Source of the DNA: an uncultured Bacteroidales bacterium
GTDB taxonomy: Bacteria; Bacteroidota; Bacteroidia; Bacteroidales; JAAAOM01
Direction: 5' to 3'
DNA: 63,445 nt
Assembly: GCA_964652315.1 (NCBI GenBank)
Contig: CAZZBU010000006.1
Location: 1 to 63,445, forward strand
Part shown: in pieces, positions 23,348-34,638 of the stretch
How the letters are laid out: each line of letters starts with the position of its first letter
How positions within the stretch are numbered: position 1 is the first letter of the stretch
Position numbers and translations under genes: made by a program
Notes under the pieces: generated by a model
Database searches by the model: none
The model's input: the letters and a program-made list of their open reading frames with translations, nothing else
Told to the model about the DNA's origin: nothing

Positions 23348-24391
23348 CTAATACTGATGCCCTGGTTCATCAAGCTTTACCTTACCACGGAAGGTATTAT
23401 AAACAAATACGGTGTATCCAACAGCCAGAGGTATACCAATGGCTACAATGGTGAGCATTATTCTGAGGGAGCGGTCCGATGAAGCAGCATTATAGATATC
23501 AATATTATGAGCCTGATCAATGGTTGACAGGAGTATCTCCGGATAAAGCTCAACAGCCACCAATATTAAAAGTAAGCTGATGGTAATGGATGAAAAAATA
23601 AATGCCTGTTCATATTTTCTTTTTGATGCCAGACGGGGCACATTGGCTATGCTTAAAAAGGTAAGCAAGGGTATGGCAAACAAAACAGGATTATTCTGAA
23701 ATTTATCCGACAGATGAGGAAGGTAAATAAGGGTGTACATGGTGATAATTCCAAAACAGACCATAAAGAAAATCATGCCGCTTTTGAGCAGATACGTAAG
23801 TTTGGCATACATCCTTCCCTCGGTTTTTAAAAGCAGGTAAATTGCACCGTGGGTCATCATCAGTGCCAGGGTTGTTACGCCTGTCATGATAGCATACGGA
23901 TTCAGAAATTCCCAGAAACCCCGTCCCTGATAATAGTAATTTTCACCAATAGCGATGCCCCCAAGCACATTACCCAGTACTACACCCAATAAAAATGCAA
24001 GCATAATACTACTGAAGCTATAGCTGATATCCCATACGCGGCGCCACCATTTCATCTCTTCCTTGCTGCGAAATTCAATGGAAACGGCCCTGAAAATTAT
24101 GAAAACTAAAAACAGCATAAAAGGAACATACATGGCTGAAAGCATCGTGGCATACATTACCGGAAAACCAGCAAACAGGGCTCCACCACCTATGACCAGC
24201 CATACTTCGTTACCGTCCCATACAGGTCCGACTGCATTAAGGGCAATTCTTCTGCTCTCTTCTTTTCTAAAAAACAAATGCCATGCTCCAGCCCCGAAAT
24301 CAAAGCCATCAAGAATAGCATACCCAGAAAACAAGGCACCAACGATTAAAAACCACCATGTTGGATAATCAAGTCCTAAAAATGTTTCCAT
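23348..24391 (-). CDS. cydB: Cytochrome bd ubiquinol oxidase subunit II
   Basis: LDGFDFGAG, GPVWDGNEVWL, LIFRAVSIEF-like segment; follows cydA. Confidence 0.95.
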   Translation of the reverse strand: METFLGLDYPTWWFLIVGALFSGYAILDGFDFGAGAWHLFFRKEESRRIALNAVGPVWDGNEVWLVIGGGALFAGFPVMYATMLSAMYVPFMLFLVFIIFRAVSIEFRSKEEMKWWRRVWDISYSFSSIMLAFLLGVVLGNVLGGIAIGENYYYQGRGFWEFLNPYAIMTGVTTLALMMTHGAIYLLLKTEGRMYAKLTYLLKSGMIFFMVCFGIITMYTLIYLPHLSDKFQNNPVLFAIPLLTFLSIANVPRLASKRKYEQAFIFSSITISLLLILVAVELYPEILLSTIDQAHNIDIYNAASSDRSLRIMLTIVAIGIPLAVGYTVFVYNTFRGKVKLDEPGHQY

Positions 24392-24395
24392 AATC

Positions 24396-25772
24396 TTATT
24401 TCATTACAACATTAGCAATATCACTTGTGAGTGGACGATCATCCATAAGACTACTGTCGTCCGGTCCCTTCTTGATTTTTTTATCCAGCAGGTAAATAAA
24501 CAATGTAAACAGCAAGGCGTAAATGGACGTGAACAATATCAGTGAAAACCATACCTGATTGGCCCTGACTGACTCTGACAGTGCATCAGAGGTGCGCAGC
24601 AAACCATAGACTACCCAGGGCTGGCGGCCCATTTCAGCTGCATACCATCCCAGTTGATTGGCAATTTGTGGCAATAAAACAGCAAAAATAAAAACCACCA
24701 TCAGCCATTTTTTGGTGAACAAGCTGCGCCGCCACATCAAAAATGTAGCATAAACAGTGATGGCTATGAGGATAAGGCCGATAAAAACCATAAAATGGTA
24801 AAATTGAAATACAGCATTAACAGCAGATGGCCTGTCTTCCTCAGGAAAGGCATTTAACCCTGTTACAGGAGTATTGAAATCGTAATCAACCAGAAAGGAA
24901 AGCCCCCCCGGAATCTTTATGCCGGTAACTTTTTGTTCTTCTTTATCAACCCATCCCATGATATACATGTCGGCCGGGGCCGATGCTTCAAAATGGCCTT
25001 CAAATGCGGCTAACTTGGCCGGTTGGGTTTCTACCAGTGTATCTGCTGAACTGTGACCGGACAATAATTGCAGAACTGCAAACACGGTTGCCACGGATAA
25101 AGCTATGCGAAAAGCTTTTTTCGAAAGCTCCACATGGCGGTTTTTATATAAATAATAGGCATGCACACTCAATACCAGGAATGCCCCGGCTAATAAAGCA
25201 CCCAGCCATACATGAAGTACACGATCGACTGATGAAGGATTGAAGACCATTGTCCAGAAATCGGTAATTTCAGCCCGGGCATTTAACCCTTCTCCAACAA
25301 TATGAAATCCTGCAGGAGTTTGTTGCCAGCTGTTTGCTACCACAATCCAGATAGCTGAAAACATAGACCCCAGGAATACTCCAATAGTTGCTATCAGATG
25401 CACAGCCGGTTTCAGCCGGTTCCAGCCAAAGAGCAATACCCCCAGAAAACCGCTTTCGAGGGCAAAGGCAAAGATGCCCTCAGCAGCCAGGGCGCTGCCA
25501 AAAATATCACCAACGTAACGTGAATATGCAGCCCAGTTGGTGCCAAATTGAAATTCCATTACAATGCCGGTGGCCACTCCAATACCAAATATAAGCGCAA
25601 AAATTTTGGTCCAAAACCTGGCTAATACCTCGTATTCTTTGTTTTTGGTGCGTACATACAGGCTTTCCATAATAACCATGATTAGTCCCAAACCTATACT
25701 AAGTGGGGGAAAAATGTAATGAAAAGCAATAGTGAATGCAAATTGAATCCGTGCCAGTATTTCAACGTCCAT
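24396..25772 (-). CDS. cydA: Cytochrome bd ubiquinol oxidase subunit I
   Basis: ARIQFAFTIAFHYIF, GVATGIVMEFQFGTNW, QPAKLAAFEG, AEMGRQPWVV. Confidence 0.96.
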   Translation of the reverse strand: MDVEILARIQFAFTIAFHYIFPPLSIGLGLIMVIMESLYVRTKNKEYEVLARFWTKIFALIFGIGVATGIVMEFQFGTNWAAYSRYVGDIFGSALAAEGIFAFALESGFLGVLLFGWNRLKPAVHLIATIGVFLGSMFSAIWIVVANSWQQTPAGFHIVGEGLNARAEITDFWTMVFNPSSVDRVLHVWLGALLAGAFLVLSVHAYYLYKNRHVELSKKAFRIALSVATVFAVLQLLSGHSSADTLVETQPAKLAAFEGHFEASAPADMYIMGWVDKEEQKVTGIKIPGGLSFLVDYDFNTPVTGLNAFPEEDRPSAVNAVFQFYHFMVFIGLILIAITVYATFLMWRRSLFTKKWLMVVFIFAVLLPQIANQLGWYAAEMGRQPWVVYGLLRTSDALSESVRANQVWFSLILFTSIYALLFTLFIYLLDKKIKKGPDDSSLMDDRPLTSDIANVVMK

Positions 25773-26049: not shown

Positions 26050-26421
26050 CTAGTATTTCTCCAAAACACTGGATAATAGTTCTTTATCAATCTCCTCTTT
26101 AATGATGTATGATCTGGCACCTGCTTCAATCATCTGAATAACATATTTCATATCTGAATGAAAGGACAGGGCGATAATGATTAAATTCCGGTAGGTTTCA
26201 GAGGCAATTTTGGTGGTTTCAATGCCATTCATAACAGGCATGTCAATATCCATAAATACAATGTCTATGACTTTTTTTGAGAGAATATCCAGGCATTCTT
26301 TTCCATTGCAGGCGGTATCGATGCTTTCAACGGTTTCATCAAAAGTATCGGTGATTAAAAATTTCAAGGCACTTAAAAATTGTACATGATCATCTACAAG
26401 TAATATTCGCAATTTTTTCAC
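26050..26421 (-). CDS. Stand-alone response regulator receiver (NarL-like REC)
   Basis: LVDDH, DIVFMDIDMPVMNG, SYIIKE; GTG start; no output domain. Confidence 0.88.
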   Translation of the reverse strand: MKKLRILLVDDHVQFLSALKFLITDTFDETVESIDTACNGKECLDILSKKVIDIVFMDIDMPVMNGIETTKIASETYRNLIIIALSFHSDMKYVIQMIEAGARSYIIKEEIDKELLSSVLEKY

Positions 26422-26537
26422 TATGGCAGGGTTTATGGTAAAATTTAAATCATCATAAATTTAATCATTGTTGTGTAATGAATCAAAGCAAACATCTCAA
26501 AATCACTCATAAAATAATTCTTTTTATAGTGATTAAT

Positions 26538-26545
26538 CAAATGTA
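26538..26545 (-). promoter_or_regulatory. sigmaA -7 element upstream of the receiver gene
   Basis: TACATTTG on the minus strand, downstream of the terminator at 26649-26683. Confidence 0.4.
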
Positions 26546-26648
26546 CGATATGCAAAAAAGAAATGGTTGAGAAGATATACGCATATTGCGATGTACTGTC
26601 ACGAATGTGTTAGTGGGTATTTACCGTCATTTTTAAAAAAAAGCATAC

Positions 26649-26683
26649 AAAAACAGGGTAACGGACAGGCGTCCGTCACCCTG
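26649..26683 (-). terminator. Intrinsic terminator
   Basis: CAGGGTGACGGAC-GCCT-GTCCGTTACCCTG 13-bp stem (one G.U pair) followed by TTTTTG on the minus strand. Confidence 0.85.
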
Positions 26684-26750
26684 CAAACCAAACCACACTA
26701 AAACAACCCTAAATCAAACCTATTAAGTAAACTTAAATATCGAAAAAATG
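26649..26750 (-). ncRNA. Candidate sRNA with GGUUUG repeats ending in a strong terminator
   Basis: Three GGTTTG and one GGGTTG within 26684-26720 on the minus strand; no ORF; own terminator. Confidence 0.5.
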
Positions 26751-26784
26751 TTCAAAAATTTTCTGATATTTTTTATTTTTTTTC

Positions 26785-26832
26785 AAAAAAAGAGGTTTCT
26801 TCTGGAGAGGATTGTCATCTACCCGAAACCTC
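26785..26832 (-). terminator. Intrinsic terminator (switchable)
   Basis: GAGGTTTC...GAAACCTC stem followed by T7 on the minus strand. Confidence 0.7.
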
Positions 26833-27024
26833 ATCAATGTTTTACAGATTAAACTCAACATCTTTTCCTACCACACAAAATCCGTTAATCTGTAAAAGTC
26901 AAATCCCCTCATAAACTAAAACCACGCATTAAATCATTTCAGACATTTATTTTCCCCGCCTAGAAGAAACCTTTTTGTGTTTACAAAATAATTTTGTATA
27001 CTTTCTATCAATTCAAATAACCTG
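26785..27024 (-). ncRNA. Candidate structured RNA/attenuator with two alternative folds
   Basis: TATATTTG -7 element at 27028-27035; helices 26962-72/26793-803 (11 bp), 26902-10/26805-13 (9 bp) and 26885-97/26840-52 (13 bp); terminator at the 3' end. Confidence 0.5.
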
Positions 27025-27181
27025 ATACAAATATACGGGGTAAAATGCCTTGTTTCTTGAGCACTACCACGCAAAATTAGTAAATTTTTACTCAAAATAA
27101 AATGTGTAGAAATAATTAATCATTACGTATCAGATTTTGGGTGTTTTCCGACATGAGGTTGAGTTTATAATATCCAGTTAA

Positions 27182-27817
27182 TCAAACGGATACAAGATTG
27201 TTTTTGATAGCATATACAACCAGGCTAATGGAATTGTTACTTTCTGTTTTCATCAGCAGATTGGATCGGTGGCGTTCTACCGTCCGTTGTGAAATATGCA
27301 GCTCATCCGAAATCTGACTGTTCGAATATCCTTTGCAAATCAGGGCTAGAATTTCCTGTTCGCGCCTTGTTAAAGTAACATTTTGATTTTCTGATTTATG
27401 CTTTATCAGGCTTAGCAATAATTCCTGTGAAAAATATGTGCCCCCTCTGAGAATGTAGCGAATGCCGTTTTTTAATTCTTCGTTATCAGCGTCTTTTAGA
27501 ATAAACCCTTTTACTCCAAGTTCAATCATGGTATTGTAATATGCATCTTCGCCAAACATTGACAGGACAAGGATGTTTAAATCAGGTTTTTTTTCGAGTG
27601 CAATGCGGGTAGCCTCCACCCCATTCATTACAGGCATGCTGATGTCCATCAGAACCAAATCAGGGTGTATGACTTCAAGCAATTCCAGGAATTCTTTTCC
27701 GTTTGATGCTTCAGCCACAACCTCAATATTTTCCATTTCATTGATTATGAATTTCAGCCCGTTACGAAACAGGTTATGATCATCCACAATGACAATTTTA
27801 TGGTTTTCTTTTTCCAT
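27182..27817 (-). CDS. NarL/LuxR-family response regulator
   Basis: VDDHNLFR, DLVLMDISMP, GFILKD, LTRREQEIL...TVERHRSNL HTH. ATG at 27817 preferred over TTG at 27835. Confidence 0.95.
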   Translation of the reverse strand: MEKENHKIVIVDDHNLFRNGLKFIINEMENIEVVAEASNGKEFLELLEVIHPDLVLMDISMPVMNGVEATRIALEKKPDLNILVLSMFGEDAYYNTMIELGVKGFILKDADNEELKNGIRYILRGGTYFSQELLLSLIKHKSENQNVTLTRREQEILALICKGYSNSQISDELHISQRTVERHRSNLLMKTESNNSISLVVYAIKNNLVSV

Positions 27818-27856
27818 ATTATAAAGATAATTCAACTTTTTTGAACCCCCAAATTG

Positions 27857-30800
27857 TTATTCTTCTGACAGCGGAACTGCCGGAGCTTCAATTTCTATTA
27901 AAATGCCCTTCTCCGGGTGTTTAAATGCAAAATTCCCGTTTAATGATTTAATCCGGCTCATGAGATTAAACAATCCCATGCCTTTTTTCTCCACTGCTTC
28001 GAAATCAAATCCTATGCCATTATCCCTGTAGGTAAGGTATAGGTTAGCGCCATCGTACTCAAGGTTTATTTTTATTTCACTGGCATTCGCATGTTTCAGG
28101 GTATTGTTTATGAGTTCTTTAATAATTCGATAGAAGGTTGTTTCCAGCATGTTGTTGAACCGCGTGTCGGCGATGCTGGTATTAAAATCTATCGATATGT
28201 GGTGGGTAAGTTTTTCAATAAAATTATCAATGGCCGATACAATGCCATAATTTGTTAGAATATGCGGACTCAGATCGTTTGAGATTTGTTTTGTGGTTTG
28301 AATGGCTTCCCGTAATATTTCGTTAACCTGCTCGATAATATATTTTTGTTTTTCAGGATTATCGGTATCAACAAATGAATTCATATACATCCGGATGCTG
28401 GATAATAGCGGACCAAGATCATCATGCAGGTTTTTTGCAAAGTTTTCGCGTTCTTTTTCCTCGGTTTTGATGATTGCATCCAACACTTTATGCTCTGTTA
28501 ATTTGCGAAGAGTAATGTCCCTGATTATGGTTAAGATAGCTTTTTTATCTTCATAATTTATGGATTTGCTGTGAAATTCAACAGGACGGTGATGATGTTC
28601 ATCCTTTTTATAGTCAAGTTCAAGGGCAGGAGCAGTGCCTTTTTTTTCAACCTCACTAAAATGTTTTTCAATTTCTTCCTGCTGGTGTTTTTCAAAAAAT
28701 GAATAAATGGAACTTCCGATAATGTCTTTTCGGCTACAATTGAGATATTCCAATAGCCGGTGATTTGCCTCGAAACAAAAGCCTTGAACATCAGATATAA
28801 GAATAGCATCGCTGCTGTTATTAAAAATATTCCGGAATTTTCTTTCGTTTTCAAGAATGGTTTTTTCAGCCTTTTCGCGTTCGGATATGTCTCTGATGGC
28901 TGTAACCCTGGCCTGTTTTCCTTCATAAGGGATATTTCGTGCAAGGACTTCAACCGGAAAAGTTGTTCCATCCTTTCTGCGGGCAAGATGTACATAAGGG
29001 CCCTTAAAGCCTTCCTTTATGGCTTTTTTCACCATATCTTGTGACTCGGGCGCTACCATTTCAATGGCATTTTTACCGATTATCTCATCAACATCGTAAC
29101 CCAACATCCAGGCAATTTGAGAATTCACTGTCAGTATTTTTCCGTCAATTGAGATAACAATTCCTTCAAAAGCTGATTCAGCGAGATTTCTGAAACGTTC
29201 TTCACTTTCTTTTAATGCTTTTTCAGCCTGCTTCCGCTCGGAGATATCTTTTACTGTTCCTTTTATGCTGGTAAGGTTACCCTTTGAATCAAATTCTCCC
29301 CGGCCGATATTTTCCAGGTAAAGCACTTTACCTGCTTGGGTCAGAATCCGGTAATCAAATTTTACAATGTCTTTTGAAACTTGATGTAGTTGAAGTTTTT
29401 CCCGCACAAGAGACTGATCATCGGGGTAAACGATTTTTTTTATGAATTTTTCCAGTCCGATGGGATTTGCGTAGGTTCCATCGCCAAGAATATTAAAGAA
29501 TTCATCTGACCAGTGGATCACATTTTGATGAATATCAATCCACCAGTTGCTTAGTTTAGCAAGTTTTTGTGCCTCTTTGAGGTTTCTCTCGCTCTGTTTT
29601 AGCGCTTTTTCAGATTTTTTACGTTCGGTGATATCGAAAATTGCACCGATTAGGCCAATGATGTTTTCTTCAGCATCAGTATAGGCCGCTTTATGATATA
29701 TCACATCGCGGATCGAACCATCGGCGTACTGAAGTGAGGCCTCCTCTATCCGGTTGCCACCAAATTCTATTAACTGAAGGTCGGATTGAATATCTTTTTC
29801 AAAATCTGTATTTGGAAACAAATCGCGCACAGTTTTTCCATGAATATCCCCCCGTTTGAATCCGGTTGAAGCTTCAAATGCAGAGTTACAACCTACAAAT
29901 TCAGTGTTCACATTTTTGTAATAAACAGGTATAGGGATGGTTTCGAGCAGGGTCATCAGAAAGTCGCGGTGCTCTTTTTCTCTGCGTTCGGCTTTTTTTC
30001 TTTCAGATATGTCACGAACAATGGCCTGAATAAAGATCTCATTATTAAAAATAAGGGAGTTGAGTACAACTTCGGCATCAAAGGGTTTGCCTGATTTGGT
30101 AATATGCTGCCATTCAAATGAATGTGTATTGCCTTGCAAACTGGATTTGATATATTCCACGGCCTTTGTTTTGGATTTTTCACCATTGGGTTGAGTATCC
30201 GGTGAAAAATCAAAGGGTGTTTTACCTATAATATCTTCATAACTGCAATTAAAAATTTCAAGGGTTTTTTTATTGCAACTGATAAATTTATCTTTTTTCA
30301 TCAGGAAAATAGCGTCGTTGGCGTTTTCAAATACAAGCCGGTATTTCTTTTCACTGTCAATCAGGGCCTGTTCGTTCTCTTTCAGTTCGGTGATATCGGT
30401 AATAACCCCTATGGATTTTACCGGAGAGGTATTTTCATCACGTTCAAAGATTTGCTCGCGAATCAATACCCAAAATACCTGATTGTTTTTACCGACCAGA
30501 CGAATCTCGTTTGTTATGATCTGATTTCCTTTTGCTTTCAGTAATTTTTCCTGGTGCTGCTGGCATATAAGCTTGTCTTTATGGAAAACCAACAGGTCTA
30601 TCACATTATTGGCTTTTTCCAGTTCTTTATCTGTGTATCCGGTTAACTCAGTCAGGCGGTTATTGAAAAAGTTGAACCGGTTGGATTCGAGGTCCAGCAC
30701 AAAAATAACATCAGGCGTGGCATTGTTAATGGCTTCCAGAAAGCTGTTTGACCTGACCAGCTCCTGTTCAAATTCTTTTTTATCGGTAATATCCCGGCCA

Positions 30801-33760
30801 ACACCTATAATTTCAATCACTTCGTTTTTTTCATTCAGGATAGCCCTGTCGCTCCAGGCAAGCCATCGCCAACCATTTACTGTAAGTGCCCGTTGCTCAA
30901 CATAAGCCGTGTAGGGAGGTTTGTAAAGCTTCATCATGGCGTCGGCTGTGGGTTTTTGATCATCTACATGAACAAATGGCATAAAGGAACTACCCAGGAG
31001 ATCAGCTTCTGATTTGCCAAATGCCCTGCAATAGGATGGACTTACAAAGAGGTATCGGCCTTCTTTGTCCACTTTAACCACAAGTTCCGACTGCAATTCT
31101 ACAATCAACCGGTATTTCTCCTCACTTTCTTCAAGTTTTTGCTGTGCCTCGCGTTCCTCTGTAATATCACGGAAAAGGGCCTGAAGGCGACCATCAGCCA
31201 GTTGTTTGCTATTCATCTGAATGATGATGGTTTTACCGTCTTTACGATTAAGCCGCCGTTCAGTGGTTACCACCTCACCTCTCAGTACTTTTTTATATTG
31301 AAGGGGCCTGGTACCCAACTCATCTTTGGAGAAAAGCATAGAAATATTACCATTGACCAATTCTTCACGGCTGTATCCGGTAAGGTGGCACATGGTTGTG
31401 TTGGTATCCAGAATTGTTCCGTCCTGCTTTCCAACCAGGATACCTTCGCCAGCCTGTTCAAATAAAGTCCGGAATTGCAATTCACTTTTTTTGATTTTTT
31501 CCTGGTTCGAAAGCCTTTCGGTTATATCCAGGAACAAAACAGTAACGCTTCCCTGTGAGCTTTGGAAAGCATGGACTTCATACGAGCTGTTGAACCGTTT
31601 ATCGGCATAATTAAATTGTTCGGAATGCCATAATCCCCCATCCCTGGCAATGTTGCGATAAATCTCCGGGATTTCGGTCTGCGCAAGGTTGGGAAAAGCT
31701 TTTTCAATGGGCTTCTGTAAAAGAGACCGATGCTTTATGCCTATTATTTCATCTGCAGCATGATTGGTCATTGTAAGGATAAGTTCATTCTCTTCGTTTA
31801 ACTCGTACATGTAAAGTCCCATAGGTGATGAGTCAACAATGCTTTTGAATCTTTCCCTGCTTATGCGCAGAGATTCTTCAGCAAGTTTCAAAGGAGTAAT
31901 GTCGCGGGCAATAGAAAACACCTTTTTTTCCTCCTTAAGTGGATAAGCGTTCCATGACAACCAGTGATAATCACCGTTCTTATGACGGTACCGGTTATGG
32001 AGGTTATGAATGGTTTTTCCACGGGAAAGATCAACCGCAGTTTGCAAAGTAGCTTTTAAATCATCAGGATGAACAATGTCTTGTATTTTTATCGTAACAA
32101 ATTCTTCCGGAGTATACCCTAAGATGGATTCAATAGAAGGACTGACCTGCTTGAAAGGATTATTAAAATCGGAAATCACCAGAATGTCTGCGGAGTGATT
32201 AAAAAACATTTTTCTTTCCAATTCGGCTCTTTTGGGTCCGGTTATATCTATTACCAGGGCATCCCATAATAATGTCTGGTCAGGCTGTCTTTTTGGAAGC
32301 GCTTTGATGCGAAGGTATTTTAATTGATTTTTATCTTTTCTGGTCTTGAGACGCACCTCACAATCCAGTACATTGCCTGTCTCAATGGATTTTTTCCGGA
32401 GGTTTTTAAGATTTTCAATGTCTTTCTGCAGGCAATTGCCATACATATTCCAGGAATTGGTATATACATCTTCTATGGGAACTTCAAATAATTCTTCGAG
32501 CTTAGTACTGGCGTATATAACTTTGTCCTGCCCACTGGAGGTAGTAAGGATTTGCAATACCGCCCCTCCTGGTAAATTATTGCTGAGGTTTTTTATGCGT
32601 TGTTCGCTTGCTTTTAACTCATTGGTTTTAAGCTCAACCAACTCTTCAAGGTGGTTTCGGTATTGGTCTAATTCATTTTCGGTTTTCTTTTTCTCCGTAA
32701 TATCCCTTGAAATGGTACCGGTTAACACCTGTTGGTTAATCTTAATCGGGAAAGAGGTACTCTGGATGGTTTTGGTTTTTCCTGAGGGGGTATTTATGCT
32801 GTGTTCCCATGTATTTACGACAGGTTCTGTTCCTGAAGACCTTGATTTTAGAAAATCAGATTTAAGTTTTGCTGAAAATCCAGTATCCTTTGTTTCTTGA
32901 AAAAGGAGCACAGACTCTAAATCCCATACAAATTTTGTTATCGCCTCTTTACCGGAAATCTCGGTAATGTTTTCTAATGCCGGATTCCATTCAATGATTT
33001 TGCCATCCTGATCAACAATGGAAATACCATCGGCCGACTGCCTGATAAAGTTTAAAAGTTTTGTTTCGCTGGTTTTAAGTGCCAGCTCAACAGTTTTTCG
33101 TTCTTCAATCTCGGCTTTCAATTTTTCAGTAAGTGTAATCAGGTTGGTGTTTTTCTCAAAAAGCTCTTCGTTGGTTGCTTTGAGTTCCTCATTCACCAAT
33201 TGCAATTCGTCCGTTCGCTCCTTTACCAGAATTTCAAGCTGGTTACGGTATTCCTGAAGTTTTTCCTCAGTGCTTTTTCGTATTTCTATTTCGTCGAGCA
33301 GTTTTTTATTTGCTGATTTTAAGGCACTATTTGTTTCTTTCAATTCTTCAACAAGCGCAACATTTTCATGCCTCAGATAATACGCTTCAAAGGCATTGTC
33401 CAGGGCATTTTTGATCTCGTCCCTGTTCCATGGTTTGGTCAGATAACTGTAAACCCTGCCTTTGTTTATGGCATCGATGACGGATTCCATATCGGCATAG
33501 GCTGTAATTATAATTCTTATAATGTTGGGATGTGTCTGTGCAATCTCTGATAAAAACTCTGTACCTGATTTCTCAGGCATGCGTTGATCAGATATAAGCA
33601 CCTGAATATCATGGTTGTCGATAATATCCCTGGCTGTACTAATATCTTTGCTTAGATATATAGTATAATCCTTTCGGAACGTATACAAAAACCCATCAAG
33701 ATTTTCCTGCTCGTCATCAATATAAAGAATGCACTTTTGCTCTTTTGTCAGTTTCCCCAT
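27857..33760 (-). CDS. Cytoplasmic hybrid sensor kinase: REC, about 12 PAS/PAC repeats, HisKA_3 and HATPase
   Basis: N-terminal IDDE/SDQRMP/KPW; repeated SE.R/K-F/Y-R...RDIT PAS-PAC units; AKNLHDDLG H-box; ELINNTLKHA, DNGIGF, GMGL; no TM seen. Confidence 0.92.
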   Translation of the reverse strand: MGKLTKEQKCILYIDDEQENLDGFLYTFRKDYTIYLSKDISTARDIIDNHDIQVLISDQRMPEKSGTEFLSEIAQTHPNIIRIIITAYADMESVIDAINKGRVYSYLTKPWNRDEIKNALDNAFEAYYLRHENVALVEELKETNSALKSANKKLLDEIEIRKSTEEKLQEYRNQLEILVKERTDELQLVNEELKATNEELFEKNTNLITLTEKLKAEIEERKTVELALKTSETKLLNFIRQSADGISIVDQDGKIIEWNPALENITEISGKEAITKFVWDLESVLLFQETKDTGFSAKLKSDFLKSRSSGTEPVVNTWEHSINTPSGKTKTIQSTSFPIKINQQVLTGTISRDITEKKKTENELDQYRNHLEELVELKTNELKASEQRIKNLSNNLPGGAVLQILTTSSGQDKVIYASTKLEELFEVPIEDVYTNSWNMYGNCLQKDIENLKNLRKKSIETGNVLDCEVRLKTRKDKNQLKYLRIKALPKRQPDQTLLWDALVIDITGPKRAELERKMFFNHSADILVISDFNNPFKQVSPSIESILGYTPEEFVTIKIQDIVHPDDLKATLQTAVDLSRGKTIHNLHNRYRHKNGDYHWLSWNAYPLKEEKKVFSIARDITPLKLAEESLRISRERFKSIVDSSPMGLYMYELNEENELILTMTNHAADEIIGIKHRSLLQKPIEKAFPNLAQTEIPEIYRNIARDGGLWHSEQFNYADKRFNSSYEVHAFQSSQGSVTVLFLDITERLSNQEKIKKSELQFRTLFEQAGEGILVGKQDGTILDTNTTMCHLTGYSREELVNGNISMLFSKDELGTRPLQYKKVLRGEVVTTERRLNRKDGKTIIIQMNSKQLADGRLQALFRDITEEREAQQKLEESEEKYRLIVELQSELVVKVDKEGRYLFVSPSYCRAFGKSEADLLGSSFMPFVHVDDQKPTADAMMKLYKPPYTAYVEQRALTVNGWRWLAWSDRAILNEKNEVIEIIGVGRDITDKKEFEQELVRSNSFLEAINNATPDVIFVLDLESNRFNFFNNRLTELTGYTDKELEKANNVIDLLVFHKDKLICQQHQEKLLKAKGNQIITNEIRLVGKNNQVFWVLIREQIFERDENTSPVKSIGVITDITELKENEQALIDSEKKYRLVFENANDAIFLMKKDKFISCNKKTLEIFNCSYEDIIGKTPFDFSPDTQPNGEKSKTKAVEYIKSSLQGNTHSFEWQHITKSGKPFDAEVVLNSLIFNNEIFIQAIVRDISERKKAERREKEHRDFLMTLLETIPIPVYYKNVNTEFVGCNSAFEASTGFKRGDIHGKTVRDLFPNTDFEKDIQSDLQLIEFGGNRIEEASLQYADGSIRDVIYHKAAYTDAEENIIGLIGAIFDITERKKSEKALKQSERNLKEAQKLAKLSNWWIDIHQNVIHWSDEFFNILGDGTYANPIGLEKFIKKIVYPDDQSLVREKLQLHQVSKDIVKFDYRILTQAGKVLYLENIGRGEFDSKGNLTSIKGTVKDISERKQAEKALKESEERFRNLAESAFEGIVISIDGKILTVNSQIAWMLGYDVDEIIGKNAIEMVAPESQDMVKKAIKEGFKGPYVHLARRKDGTTFPVEVLARNIPYEGKQARVTAIRDISEREKAEKTILENERKFRNIFNNSSDAILISDVQGFCFEANHRLLEYLNCSRKDIIGSSIYSFFEKHQQEEIEKHFSEVEKKGTAPALELDYKKDEHHHRPVEFHSKSINYEDKKAILTIIRDITLRKLTEHKVLDAIIKTEEKERENFAKNLHDDLGPLLSSIRMYMNSFVDTDNPEKQKYIIEQVNEILREAIQTTKQISNDLSPHILTNYGIVSAIDNFIEKLTHHISIDFNTSIADTRFNNMLETTFYRIIKELINNTLKHANASEIKINLEYDGANLYLTYRDNGIGFDFEAVEKKGMGLFNLMSRIKSLNGNFAFKHPEKGILIEIEAPAVPLSEE

Positions 33761-34040: not shown

Positions 34041-34415
34041 CTAGAGCACATCAGCATACTCAATAAAACGAAACTCTATTGTTGGCAGCAGGGATTTATA
34101 GTACTGACCTGAATCGAGCATGTCCTCATCATCTTCGGCATAATACCAGTTTGCCCGCACCTTTTTAATTAAAGGGTTTTCAGTCAAAGTTTTAAACAGA
34201 ATATACATTTGTTTGGTTGACGATGTGTTTAGGTACTCCACTTTTATGTCCAGTACCACTTCTACCACTTCCAACTTTCTGGCATAATCAAATAACGGTT
34301 GATAAAATTTCAGGGAGTCTTCGGGTAAGGAAACACCTTCAATTAAAAAATAACCATTTTGGGTGATTTTAATGAAAGGCGTTGTTTTTGTGCCTTGAAT
34401 TAATATTTCCTGCAT
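34041..34415 (-). CDS. SiaC-family (DUF1987) regulatory phosphoprotein
   Basis: GTKTTPFI, IEGVSLPED, EYLNTSSTK, WYYAEDDEDMLDSG. Start at MQEILI (34415). Confidence 0.85.
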   Translation of the reverse strand: MQEILIQGTKTTPFIKITQNGYFLIEGVSLPEDSLKFYQPLFDYARKLEVVEVVLDIKVEYLNTSSTKQMYILFKTLTENPLIKKVRANWYYAEDDEDMLDSGQYYKSLLPTIEFRFIEYADVL

Positions 34416-34638
34416 GAGTTGAGGTTTAATGACTTGTACAAATATAATCAGGCACGGTTGAACAACCAAACTTTTTTAAAAAAAAATGATATGATACATA
34501 ATAAATTTATTTCGTGTTATTTTGTTAATCAAATTGAATGACTTTATTTCAAAGTCAGAGATAAAGTTTCAGACTATTGTCCAGAAACGAAATTCAAAGG
34601 CTTACGTTAAAAAAAGACTTTATTAATAACATGATTGT

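Follow-up and report, generated by a model that had tools for sequence, protein, structure and literature searches.

The non-coding gap between a NarL/LuxR-type response regulator gene and a gene for a stand-alone receiver (REC-only) protein was studied in a stretch of DNA of 63,445 nt, referred to here as the window, from an uncultured Bacteroidales bacterium. The window forms the beginning of contig C6 of the source metagenome-assembled genome (MAG), G000, which comprises 4.2 Mb in 294 contigs and occurs in microbial-mat metagenomes. Within the gap lies a segment of about 66 nt, unit 2, that is predicted from its sequence to be a real, conserved and previously undescribed small RNA (sRNA) gene, and the family it represents is a new one of a known type, that of the two-component-driven small RNA ending in a terminator. 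On balance, the gap as a whole seems to supply a NarL-type two-component module with its non-coding output, with an sRNA that would act in trans in the manner of FopS and GibS of Bacteroides thetaiotaomicron. A preliminary description of the same DNA had placed two tandem terminated units in the gap (units 1 and 2) and a third at the left edge of the window (unit 3), and had suggested that they may form one dispersed RNA family under signalling control.

The unit 2 small RNA and its relatives

The unit 2 RNA is predicted to fold into an unpaired head followed by a hairpin (z = −4.75), and the hairpin with its U-run was the sole terminator called in the region by a terminator scanner. The head was unpaired in the minimum free energy fold of every sRNA copy. 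The 32 nt on the 5′ side of the unit 2 hairpin are 91% G+T and contain three GGT; when G+T content was compared over the 5745 sites in the genome at which a hairpin is followed by a T-run (mean 0.50, standard deviation 0.10), the three copies present in G000 were extreme outliers at 0.84–0.91. In four of the six copies first found, and also in G002_b, the sequence TAnnTTTG stands 3–9 nt upstream of the RNA start as placed in the alignment. This consensus is the −7 box of the Bacteroidota sigma-A factor (sigma-ABfr), according to literature cited in PMC11697453, and the string TAGGTTTG in unit 2 is therefore read as a promoter that lies outside the RNA. Unit 2 thus has the features of an independent, intrinsically terminated sRNA gene, namely a promoter of its own, a covarying hairpin with a U-run and no conserved open reading frame (ORF).

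Two further copies were found in the G000 genome, at C42:16152 on the minus strand and C60:13495 on the plus strand (C denotes a contig), giving three in all. The three share an identical 18-nt core, GGTTGTTTTAGTGTGGTT, and their hairpin sequences are wholly unlike. The exact core followed by a terminator was also found in G001 and G002, which belong to other genera of the same family of the Genome Taxonomy Database (GTDB), designated f1, while G003 carries a diverged form of the sRNA. No exact core with a terminator was found outside the three family MAGs G000, G001 and G002 among 185,579 species genomes, JGI metagenomes and viral contigs; the exact-core matches encountered beyond them all lacked a terminator, appeared chance-like and were rejected as members.

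A covariance model built from the unit 2 family (R1) matched exactly the three G000 copies when its own genome was searched; units 1 and 3 gave no match. With a second model (R2), which drew on 12 members, the family was detected at E ≤ 1e-4 in 12 of the 401 genomes in a sample of the order, comprising all four genera of its own family, two other families (f8 and f46) and a few weak matches, and by these genome scans it is narrow in distribution and low in copy number. Compensatory changes were seen at all nine modelled pairs of the hairpin with 100% of cells paired, a figure flattered by an alignment that was model-guided and so fitted to the model; in a control in which the 3′ partners were slid, 33–56% of cells were paired. 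The f8 head has a diverged sequence, AGGGUUUGGUUGGAUUUAGGUAGG, and the element still stands between a LuxR-type regulator gene and a REC gene. The preliminary description had proposed, among other checks, a covariance scan of this genome and of Bacteroidota intergenic regions and an Rfam scan. The former, run with models of unit 2, recovered its family across the order sample as described above, and the latter (Rfam 15, cmscan), with the whole window at gathering thresholds and the gap at E ≤ 10, returned chance matches only, so that no described family was matched. In a separate observation, the f8-type core AGGGTTTGGTTGGATTTAGGT occurs once in L127 (IMGVR_UViG_3300035208_009193, 675 kb), a sequence filed as viral that may come from a giant phage or be a bacterial contig filed in error.

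Homologues of the RNA were found in RNA libraries. The f8-type sRNA was covered by contigs in seven RNA-seq runs. Two activated-sludge runs contained near-identical contigs across the f8 locus, and in five metatranscriptomes from sediment, soil and bioreactors only L105:1231-1304, the 73-nt f8-type sRNA, was matched, at ~ 93% identity and with unlike flanks. As far as sequence comparison reaches, the metatranscriptome contigs show an RNA that is strongly conserved relative to its surroundings and is present in RNA libraries. Comparison of the unit 2 family likewise found the RNA conserved while its flanks are not.

Table 1. Positions of the genes and of the predicted RNAs, promoters and operators. 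Coordinates are those of the window unless another contig is named.
Feature	Position	Strand	Description
Small RNA (unit 2)	26649-26714	minus	~ 66 nt; head AUUUAGGGUUGUUUUAGUGUGGUUUGGUUU, terminator hairpin, U-run
Invariant core of unit 2	26708-26691	minus	GGUUGUUUUAGUGUGGUU; C-free
Terminator hairpin of unit 2	26684-26653	minus	14 bp, GC-rich, then U-run ending near 26649
−7 promoter box of unit 2	26715-26722	minus	TAGGTTTG; TAnnTTTG type
Unit 1	26785-27022	minus	C-poor, non-coding; weak hairpin and U7, stem 26832-26825 / 26799-26792
−7 box of unit 1	27028-27035	minus	TATATTTG, exactly 21 nt past the operator; TATTTTTG at the same place in G001
Tandem operator, unit-1 promoter	27057-27095	minus	distal TTGAGTA 27095-27089; proximal TGCGTGGTAGTGCTCAA 27073-27057
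Distal element	27138-27152	minus	GTCGGAAAACACCCA; G[AT]CGG-N5-ACCCA; upstream of unit-1 promoter
Second distal element	26614-26628	minus	GACGGTAAATACCCA; just past the sRNA terminator, upstream of REC promoter
REC-gene promoter	26538-26583	minus	operator TGCGTATATCTTCTCAA 26583-26567, N21, −7 box TACATTTG 26545-26538
Unit 3	1-113	minus	sigma54-type promoter TGGCACGGGATATGTA 113-98; body with four UAGGU
Non-coding gap, regulator to REC-only gene	26422-27181		760 nt
Sensor kinase	27857-33760	minus	1967 aa; N-terminal REC, about a dozen PAS, HisKA_3, HATPase_c (Pfam)
NarL/LuxR-type response regulator	27182-27835	minus	217 aa; REC and GerE helix-turn-helix (Pfam)
Stand-alone receiver, REC-only	26050-26421	minus	123 aa (Pfam)
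cydA	24396-25772	minus	co-oriented, downstream of REC-only gene (Pfam)
cydB	23348-24391	minus	co-oriented, downstream of REC-only gene (Pfam)
sRNA copies before REC-only orthologues	G000 C6, G000 C42		own genome
sRNA copies before REC-only orthologues	G001 C1:1024841, C1:1417159
sRNA copies before REC-only orthologues	G002 C348, C62
sRNA copies before REC-only orthologues	G010, G271, G372, G155		f8 genomes

Operators, synteny and the other two units

The relationship between the RNA and the adjacent regulator was explored through the promoters of the gap. The pattern TG[AC]GT-N7-CTCAA-N21-TAnnTTTG was found at exactly two sites in the 4.2 Mb, with or without one mismatch, and both lie inside the gap, at 27073 in the unit-1 promoter and at 26583 in the promoter of the REC gene, where both read TGCGT-N7-CTCAA-N21-TAnnTTTG. 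Other operator spacers, from 15 to 27 nt, gave two matches in total over the same genome. Both orthologous promoters of G001, the REC site of which is a perfect palindrome, ATTGAGTATTTTTTCTCAAT, share this geometry, as does that of the REC gene in G372. The G003 operator directly follows the genes for a HisKA_3 kinase and a NarL-type regulator, with two tandem sRNA copies ~ 60 nt downstream of it.

A second motif, the distal element G[AT]CGG-N5-ACCCA, has seven matches in the genome, of which two are in the gap (27152 and 26628), before both promoters. It precedes the sRNA and REC in f8 and occurs, too, in distant modules without the sRNA, and the distal-element string follows the sRNA in G001, G155 and metatranscriptome contigs. 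The element holds TACCCAY, which resembles a NarL heptamer. The heptamers TACCCAC/CACCCAA are conserved, as are TACTCAA/TTCTCAA within the operator palindrome, and no enrichment of the generic NarL heptamer TACYYMT was found in the gap. The sequence TACTTAA beside the sRNA −7 box was considered as a NarL site and rejected, being conserved in neither G001 nor G002. A further copy of the distal element was noted at G000 C114:5302 in surroundings that are not coding-like, and might be another member of the regulon.

Because the shared operator is unique and conserved, it supports control of the sRNA by the kinase and regulator. The arrangement of the sites supports the view that a single regulator, most simply the adjacent NarL-type protein, would link the non-coding transcript to the REC gene. 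The earlier proposal that the RNAs are under signalling control has thereby gained a shared operator and promoter blueprint; note, however, that the operator stands at the unit-1 promoter and not at the −7 box of unit 2.

The position of the sRNA within signalling modules is recurrent. Of the 15 listed f1 and f8 copies, ten are followed in the same orientation, at a distance of 70–230 nt, by an orthologue of the REC-only gene (E down to 1e-58). In G001 and in four f8 genomes the sRNA is also downstream of a LuxR-type regulator gene; for f8, the 3′ end of the LuxR-type helix-turn-helix gene was read from the DNA upstream of the sRNA. The regulator gene order of G000 is seen again in G001 and G003, and the f46 copy, which stands outside such modules, lies 26 nt before a 491-aa ORF. 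Since the regulator-to-REC position recurs in two GTDB families, the embedding of the RNA in signalling modules is supported. The remoter REC orthologues directly follow the regulator gene and lack the sRNA element, which suggests that the sRNA was inserted into an older regulator–receiver module.

The tandem duplication of the sRNA in G003 occupies L072 (G003 C22) 1377-1565, and its first copy has a hairpin that lacks a U-run. One interpretation is that both tandem copies would, for that reason, form one transcript from the operator-bearing promoter.

Unit 1 is probably the leader or the long form of a regulated transcript that runs on into unit 2. Its hairpin has an irregular stem of 8 bp that encloses 24 nt (−14.6 kcal/mol, z = −1.0), and the fold of the whole unit gave z = −1.9. 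The idea of two tandem terminated units therefore holds for unit 2, with its strong terminator, and less well for unit 1, with its weak one. The body of unit 1 could not be aligned with G001, and no paralogue was found in the genome by BLAST or covariance model. It contains one degenerate core-like segment, TTTTGTGTGGTAGG, and was ruled out as a member of the unit 2 family by the same two methods. A 230-nt contig that is 93% identical to the window over 26743-26974, spanning unit 1 and its hairpin, was present in run X7, and two of its changes (26832 and 26829) would break the unit-1 terminator stem. X7 was rejected as expression evidence, since its library type is unspecified and scattered low-depth contigs from it also lie on coding DNA.

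Unit 3 is predicted to be a genuine but different conserved sRNA with a sigma54-type promoter. It is cut by the end of the contig, and contig C199 (5529-5583), which overlaps the window by 55 nt, completes its terminator; the fold gave z = −2.9. Orthologues were found in G001 (C1:1834826) and G002 (C63:1387). These keep the promoter, TGGCA(C/T)-N9-ATGT, and the body, CCCTTCTCT..ATATAGGTATAGGTTTATT..AGGTAATACT, and differ in the terminator stem. A third unit behind a sigma54-like promoter at the left edge, as first described, is thus present and conserved in two relatives. A partial copy was also noted at G000 C87:247-278.

The kinship claimed between unit 3 and unit 2 fared less well. The TTTTTTC(G)ATA head and TAGGTTTG, on which it had been based, are literally present in both, but they are promoter-like strings of low information that occur 145 and 128 times in the genome, respectively, and the G001 orthologue of unit 3 lacks TAGGTTTG and TTTTTTCATA. 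Strings this frequent make the similarity no evidence of kinship, and membership of unit 3 in the unit 2 family was ruled out by BLAST, by the covariance model and by the lack of conservation of the shared strings. The single family of three units is accordingly abandoned, unit 3 being a separate sRNA and unit 1 not being conserved in sequence; what remains of the dispersed family is the unit 2 family, with its three copies and its relatives.

What the units have in common is a stretch poor in C and rich in UAGG(G)U. The genome has only four clusters in which three or more TAGG(G)T fall within 45 nt, and two of the four, unit 3 and C62:18165, are followed by a terminator in intergenic DNA. The site at G000 C62:18165 (plus strand) is a candidate small RNA with clustered UAGGU, reading TAGGTTTTAGGTTAGTAGATAGGTT and then a terminator, AAAACCCGG..CCGGGTTTT.

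The genes around the gap were as first described, with kinase, NarL-type regulator, 760-nt gap, receiver and cydAB all on the minus strand and identified by Pfam. HisKA_3 is the DHp type that partners NarL/LuxR regulators, and the pairing found here of a HisKA_3 kinase with a REC and GerE regulator is that of a NarX/NarL-type system. SiaC/DUF1987 genes were also seen to head both of the sRNA-containing modules in G000 (window 34041-34469, minus strand, and G000 C42:16585-16998). A similar 123-aa gene, putatively SiaC-like, lies upstream of the G001 kinase.

Mode of action and competing explanations

In the proposed circuit, the adjacent regulator would bind the paired operators and switch on (or off) two promoters, one for non-coding RNA and one for the REC-only protein, which could be a phosphate sink or a connector. 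The sRNA would be made from its own sigma-A-type −7 box, and probably also from the operator-bearing unit-1 promoter, as the 3′ portion of a longer transcript that reaches it by reading through the weak unit-1 hairpin. It would then work in trans through its invariant head, by pairing with mRNAs, by being bound by small RRM-1 proteins, or both.

Several results weigh against this circuit. The sRNA's own −7 box has no operator, and the same is true of the C42 and C60 copies, so control of unit 2 by the regulator hinges on read-through of a weak hairpin. The assignment of the operator to the regulator rests on adjacency and on the resemblance to NarL heptamers. Two copies lie outside signalling modules, before dnaK (C60) and before a HicB-like gene (G001). 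No RNA run containing the organism of G000 was found; X7 was the sole run not labelled as DNA, and is of low depth and unspecified type. Logan contigs carry no transcript ends, and carry-over of DNA into metatranscriptomes is possible. Target pairing scored with RNAduplex over ~ 6500 crude start regions was no better than for shuffled heads, and perfect 9–10-mer complements near starts were fewer than for shuffles, in scans that were crude and had shuffled controls themselves biased by A-runs. The start region of the REC mRNA was rejected as a target, as no consistent or significant duplex was found over nine loci.

The identity of a possible protein partner was also considered. No CsrA (PF02599) scored over the cut-off in the genome, in a search to which the controls responded, in line with the earlier premise that Bacteroidota generally lack CsrA, and no Hfq was found in the genome. 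Two single-domain RRM_1 proteins of the Bacteroides RbpA/B/C type are encoded, on C98 (83 aa) and C262 (101 aa), so that an RRM-type candidate of the kind first suggested is available; both genes lie away from the sRNA copies. FopS of B. thetaiotaomicron is bound in its 5′ part by RbpB, which relieves the repression of susC mRNAs by FopS (PMC11697453), and in vitro RbpB binds three repeats of GUAGGAUA and not a C/U-rich motif (bioRxiv 10.1101/2021.04.27.441718). These ligand data make the G/U-rich heads plausible Rbp ligands.

It could be that the RNA is a protein sponge, the UAGG(G)U and GGUU motifs of which titrate the RRM-1 (Rbp) proteins in a Gac/Rsm-like manner without CsrA, the motifs perhaps being displayed chiefly on the long unit 1+2 transcript or on the G003 tandem copies. 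The binding preferences of RbpB and the two RRM_1 genes in a genome without CsrA or Hfq speak for it. So do the C-free, unpaired heads, in which the type of motif is kept while order and spacing shift (UAGGGUU..GGUUUGGUUU in f1, UAGGGUUUGGUUGGAUUUAGGUAGG in f8 and UAGGUUAG..UAGGGUUGGUAGGUUU in f46), together with the rarity of TAGG(G)T clusters, half of which have intergenic terminators, and a tiny, RNA-directed operator regulon such as that of GacA. We nevertheless regard a sponge as unlikely. Two to four motifs on a 66-nt RNA compare with 5–22 GGA sites in the Rsm and Csr RNAs, the motifs lie in a linear head and not in hairpin loops, RbpB affinities are micromolar, and at least 18 contiguous nucleotides are invariant across paralogues and three genera, which is more than the 4–8 nt that an RRM site needs. 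A bolder version is more doubtful still, and we consider it improbable: that a NarL-type system drives C-free RNAs titrating abundant RRM-1 proteins of the RbpA/B/C type, as a convergent Gac/Rsm-like switch with the REC-only protein as feedback partner and unit 3 feeding the same hub. Small size, few motifs and a seed-like invariant stretch favour instead a FopS-like RNA that would act in trans.

Two further explanations dispense with a trans-acting RNA. The position of most copies, 70–230 nt upstream of a co-oriented gene (ten with REC orthologues, one with dnaK), would suit a cis-acting leader, that is, an attenuator gating the gene that follows (REC-only, or dnaK in the case of the third copy), as would the 754-nt metatranscriptome contig X19, which starts at the sRNA 5′ end and continues downstream. 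This is very unlikely, however, as in G000, G001 and G372 an operator-bearing promoter for the REC gene itself stands between the terminator and the start codon, copies precede unrelated genes, and the gene after the tandem copies of G003 is on the opposite strand. No anti-terminator is apparent either; the C-free head cannot pair with the G-rich 5′ arm, and the stems are wholly unlike. The segment might also be no functional RNA but a site that acts at the level of DNA or a small intergenic repeat beside terminators, and its low copy number and its narrow distribution are compatible with that, as is the failure to find an RNA run containing this organism. Yet the promoter box, core, hairpin and U-run keep their order and orientation in every copy and the hairpin covaries; there are no inverted repeats or target-site duplications, the candidate sites of the regulator lie elsewhere, and homologues with unlike flanks are present in many RNA libraries, all of which makes such an element highly improbable.

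Post-transcriptional control in Bacteroidota is poorly charted. To our knowledge the phylum lacks Hfq, ProQ and CsrA, only a few of its sRNAs (GibS, FopS, MasB and the like) have a known function, all of them from gut Bacteroides, and we know of no two-component-to-sRNA cascade described in it. The locus offers a compact, conserved and testable circuit of kinase, NarL-type regulator, paired operators, sRNA and receiver-only protein, with a regulon apparently of two promoters. If the RNA binds RRM-1 proteins, signal transduction would be linked to the candidate global RNA-binding proteins of the phylum; if it pairs with mRNAs, it would represent a new seed family. A practical limit is that the carrier lineages are mostly uncultured.

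Comparison with known systems

The closest known analogue of the unit 2 family is provided by FopS and GibS with RbpB in B. thetaiotaomicron. FopS is a multicopy RNA of 65–70 nt with a single-stranded 5′ seed and a terminator, and has been deposited in Rfam (PMC11697453). Both sets of RNAs come from the same order, measure ~ 65–70 nt, have a TAnnTTTG promoter and several paralogues, and consist of nothing but a conserved, single-stranded 5′ region and a Rho-independent terminator; their hosts likewise share small RRM-1 proteins and the absence of Hfq and CsrA. The likeness found is thus one of architecture, and it does not extend to sequence or covariance similarity to the conserved 5′ region of FopS and GibS (R1/R1′). 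The FopS 5′ end, taken from a Northern probe, is GUAUUAGAUUUAAGGUUAACAAA and cannot be aligned with unit 2, only GAUUUA.GGUU being common to some copies, and no Bacteroides sRNA family was among the Rfam 15 matches to the gap at E ≤ 10, in a copy of Rfam in which the FopS entry was unconfirmed. FopS and GibS have 12–15 copies against three in G000, and differ from unit 2 in that the latter has a C-free, G/U-rich head, an embedding between NarL and REC genes, and a dedicated operator.

With GacS/GacA-RsmX/Y/Z and BarA/UvrY-CsrB/C, the locus shares a regulator of the NarL/FixJ family with a tiny putative regulon aimed at non-coding RNA, a candidate palindromic upstream site of ~ 18 bp (the GacA box is TGTAAG-N6-CTTACA) and short motifs repeated in the RNA. 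Of the hallmarks of a Csr/Rsm system, no CsrA or RsmA was found in the genome and no match to CsrB or RsmX/Y/Z in Rfam; GGUU and UAGG in a linear head take the place of GGA in loops, on a much shorter RNA with fewer motifs. The REC-only protein as a co-output also sets the present locus apart from Gac/Rsm. In structure, an RNA of 66 nt that carries two to four motifs on an unpaired head is more reminiscent of the base-pairing FopS than of RsmZ or CsrB.

A signalling system with an sRNA as its direct output is also known from OmpR-OmrA/B, PhoP-MgrR and LuxO/sigma54-Qrr, which differ from the predicted circuit in phylum and in the use of Hfq, and have no sequence relation to it. Among these, the Qrr sRNAs are multicopy and contain an invariant stretch, as does the unit 2 family, and the sigma54-type promoter predicted for unit 3 resembles the Qrr arrangement.

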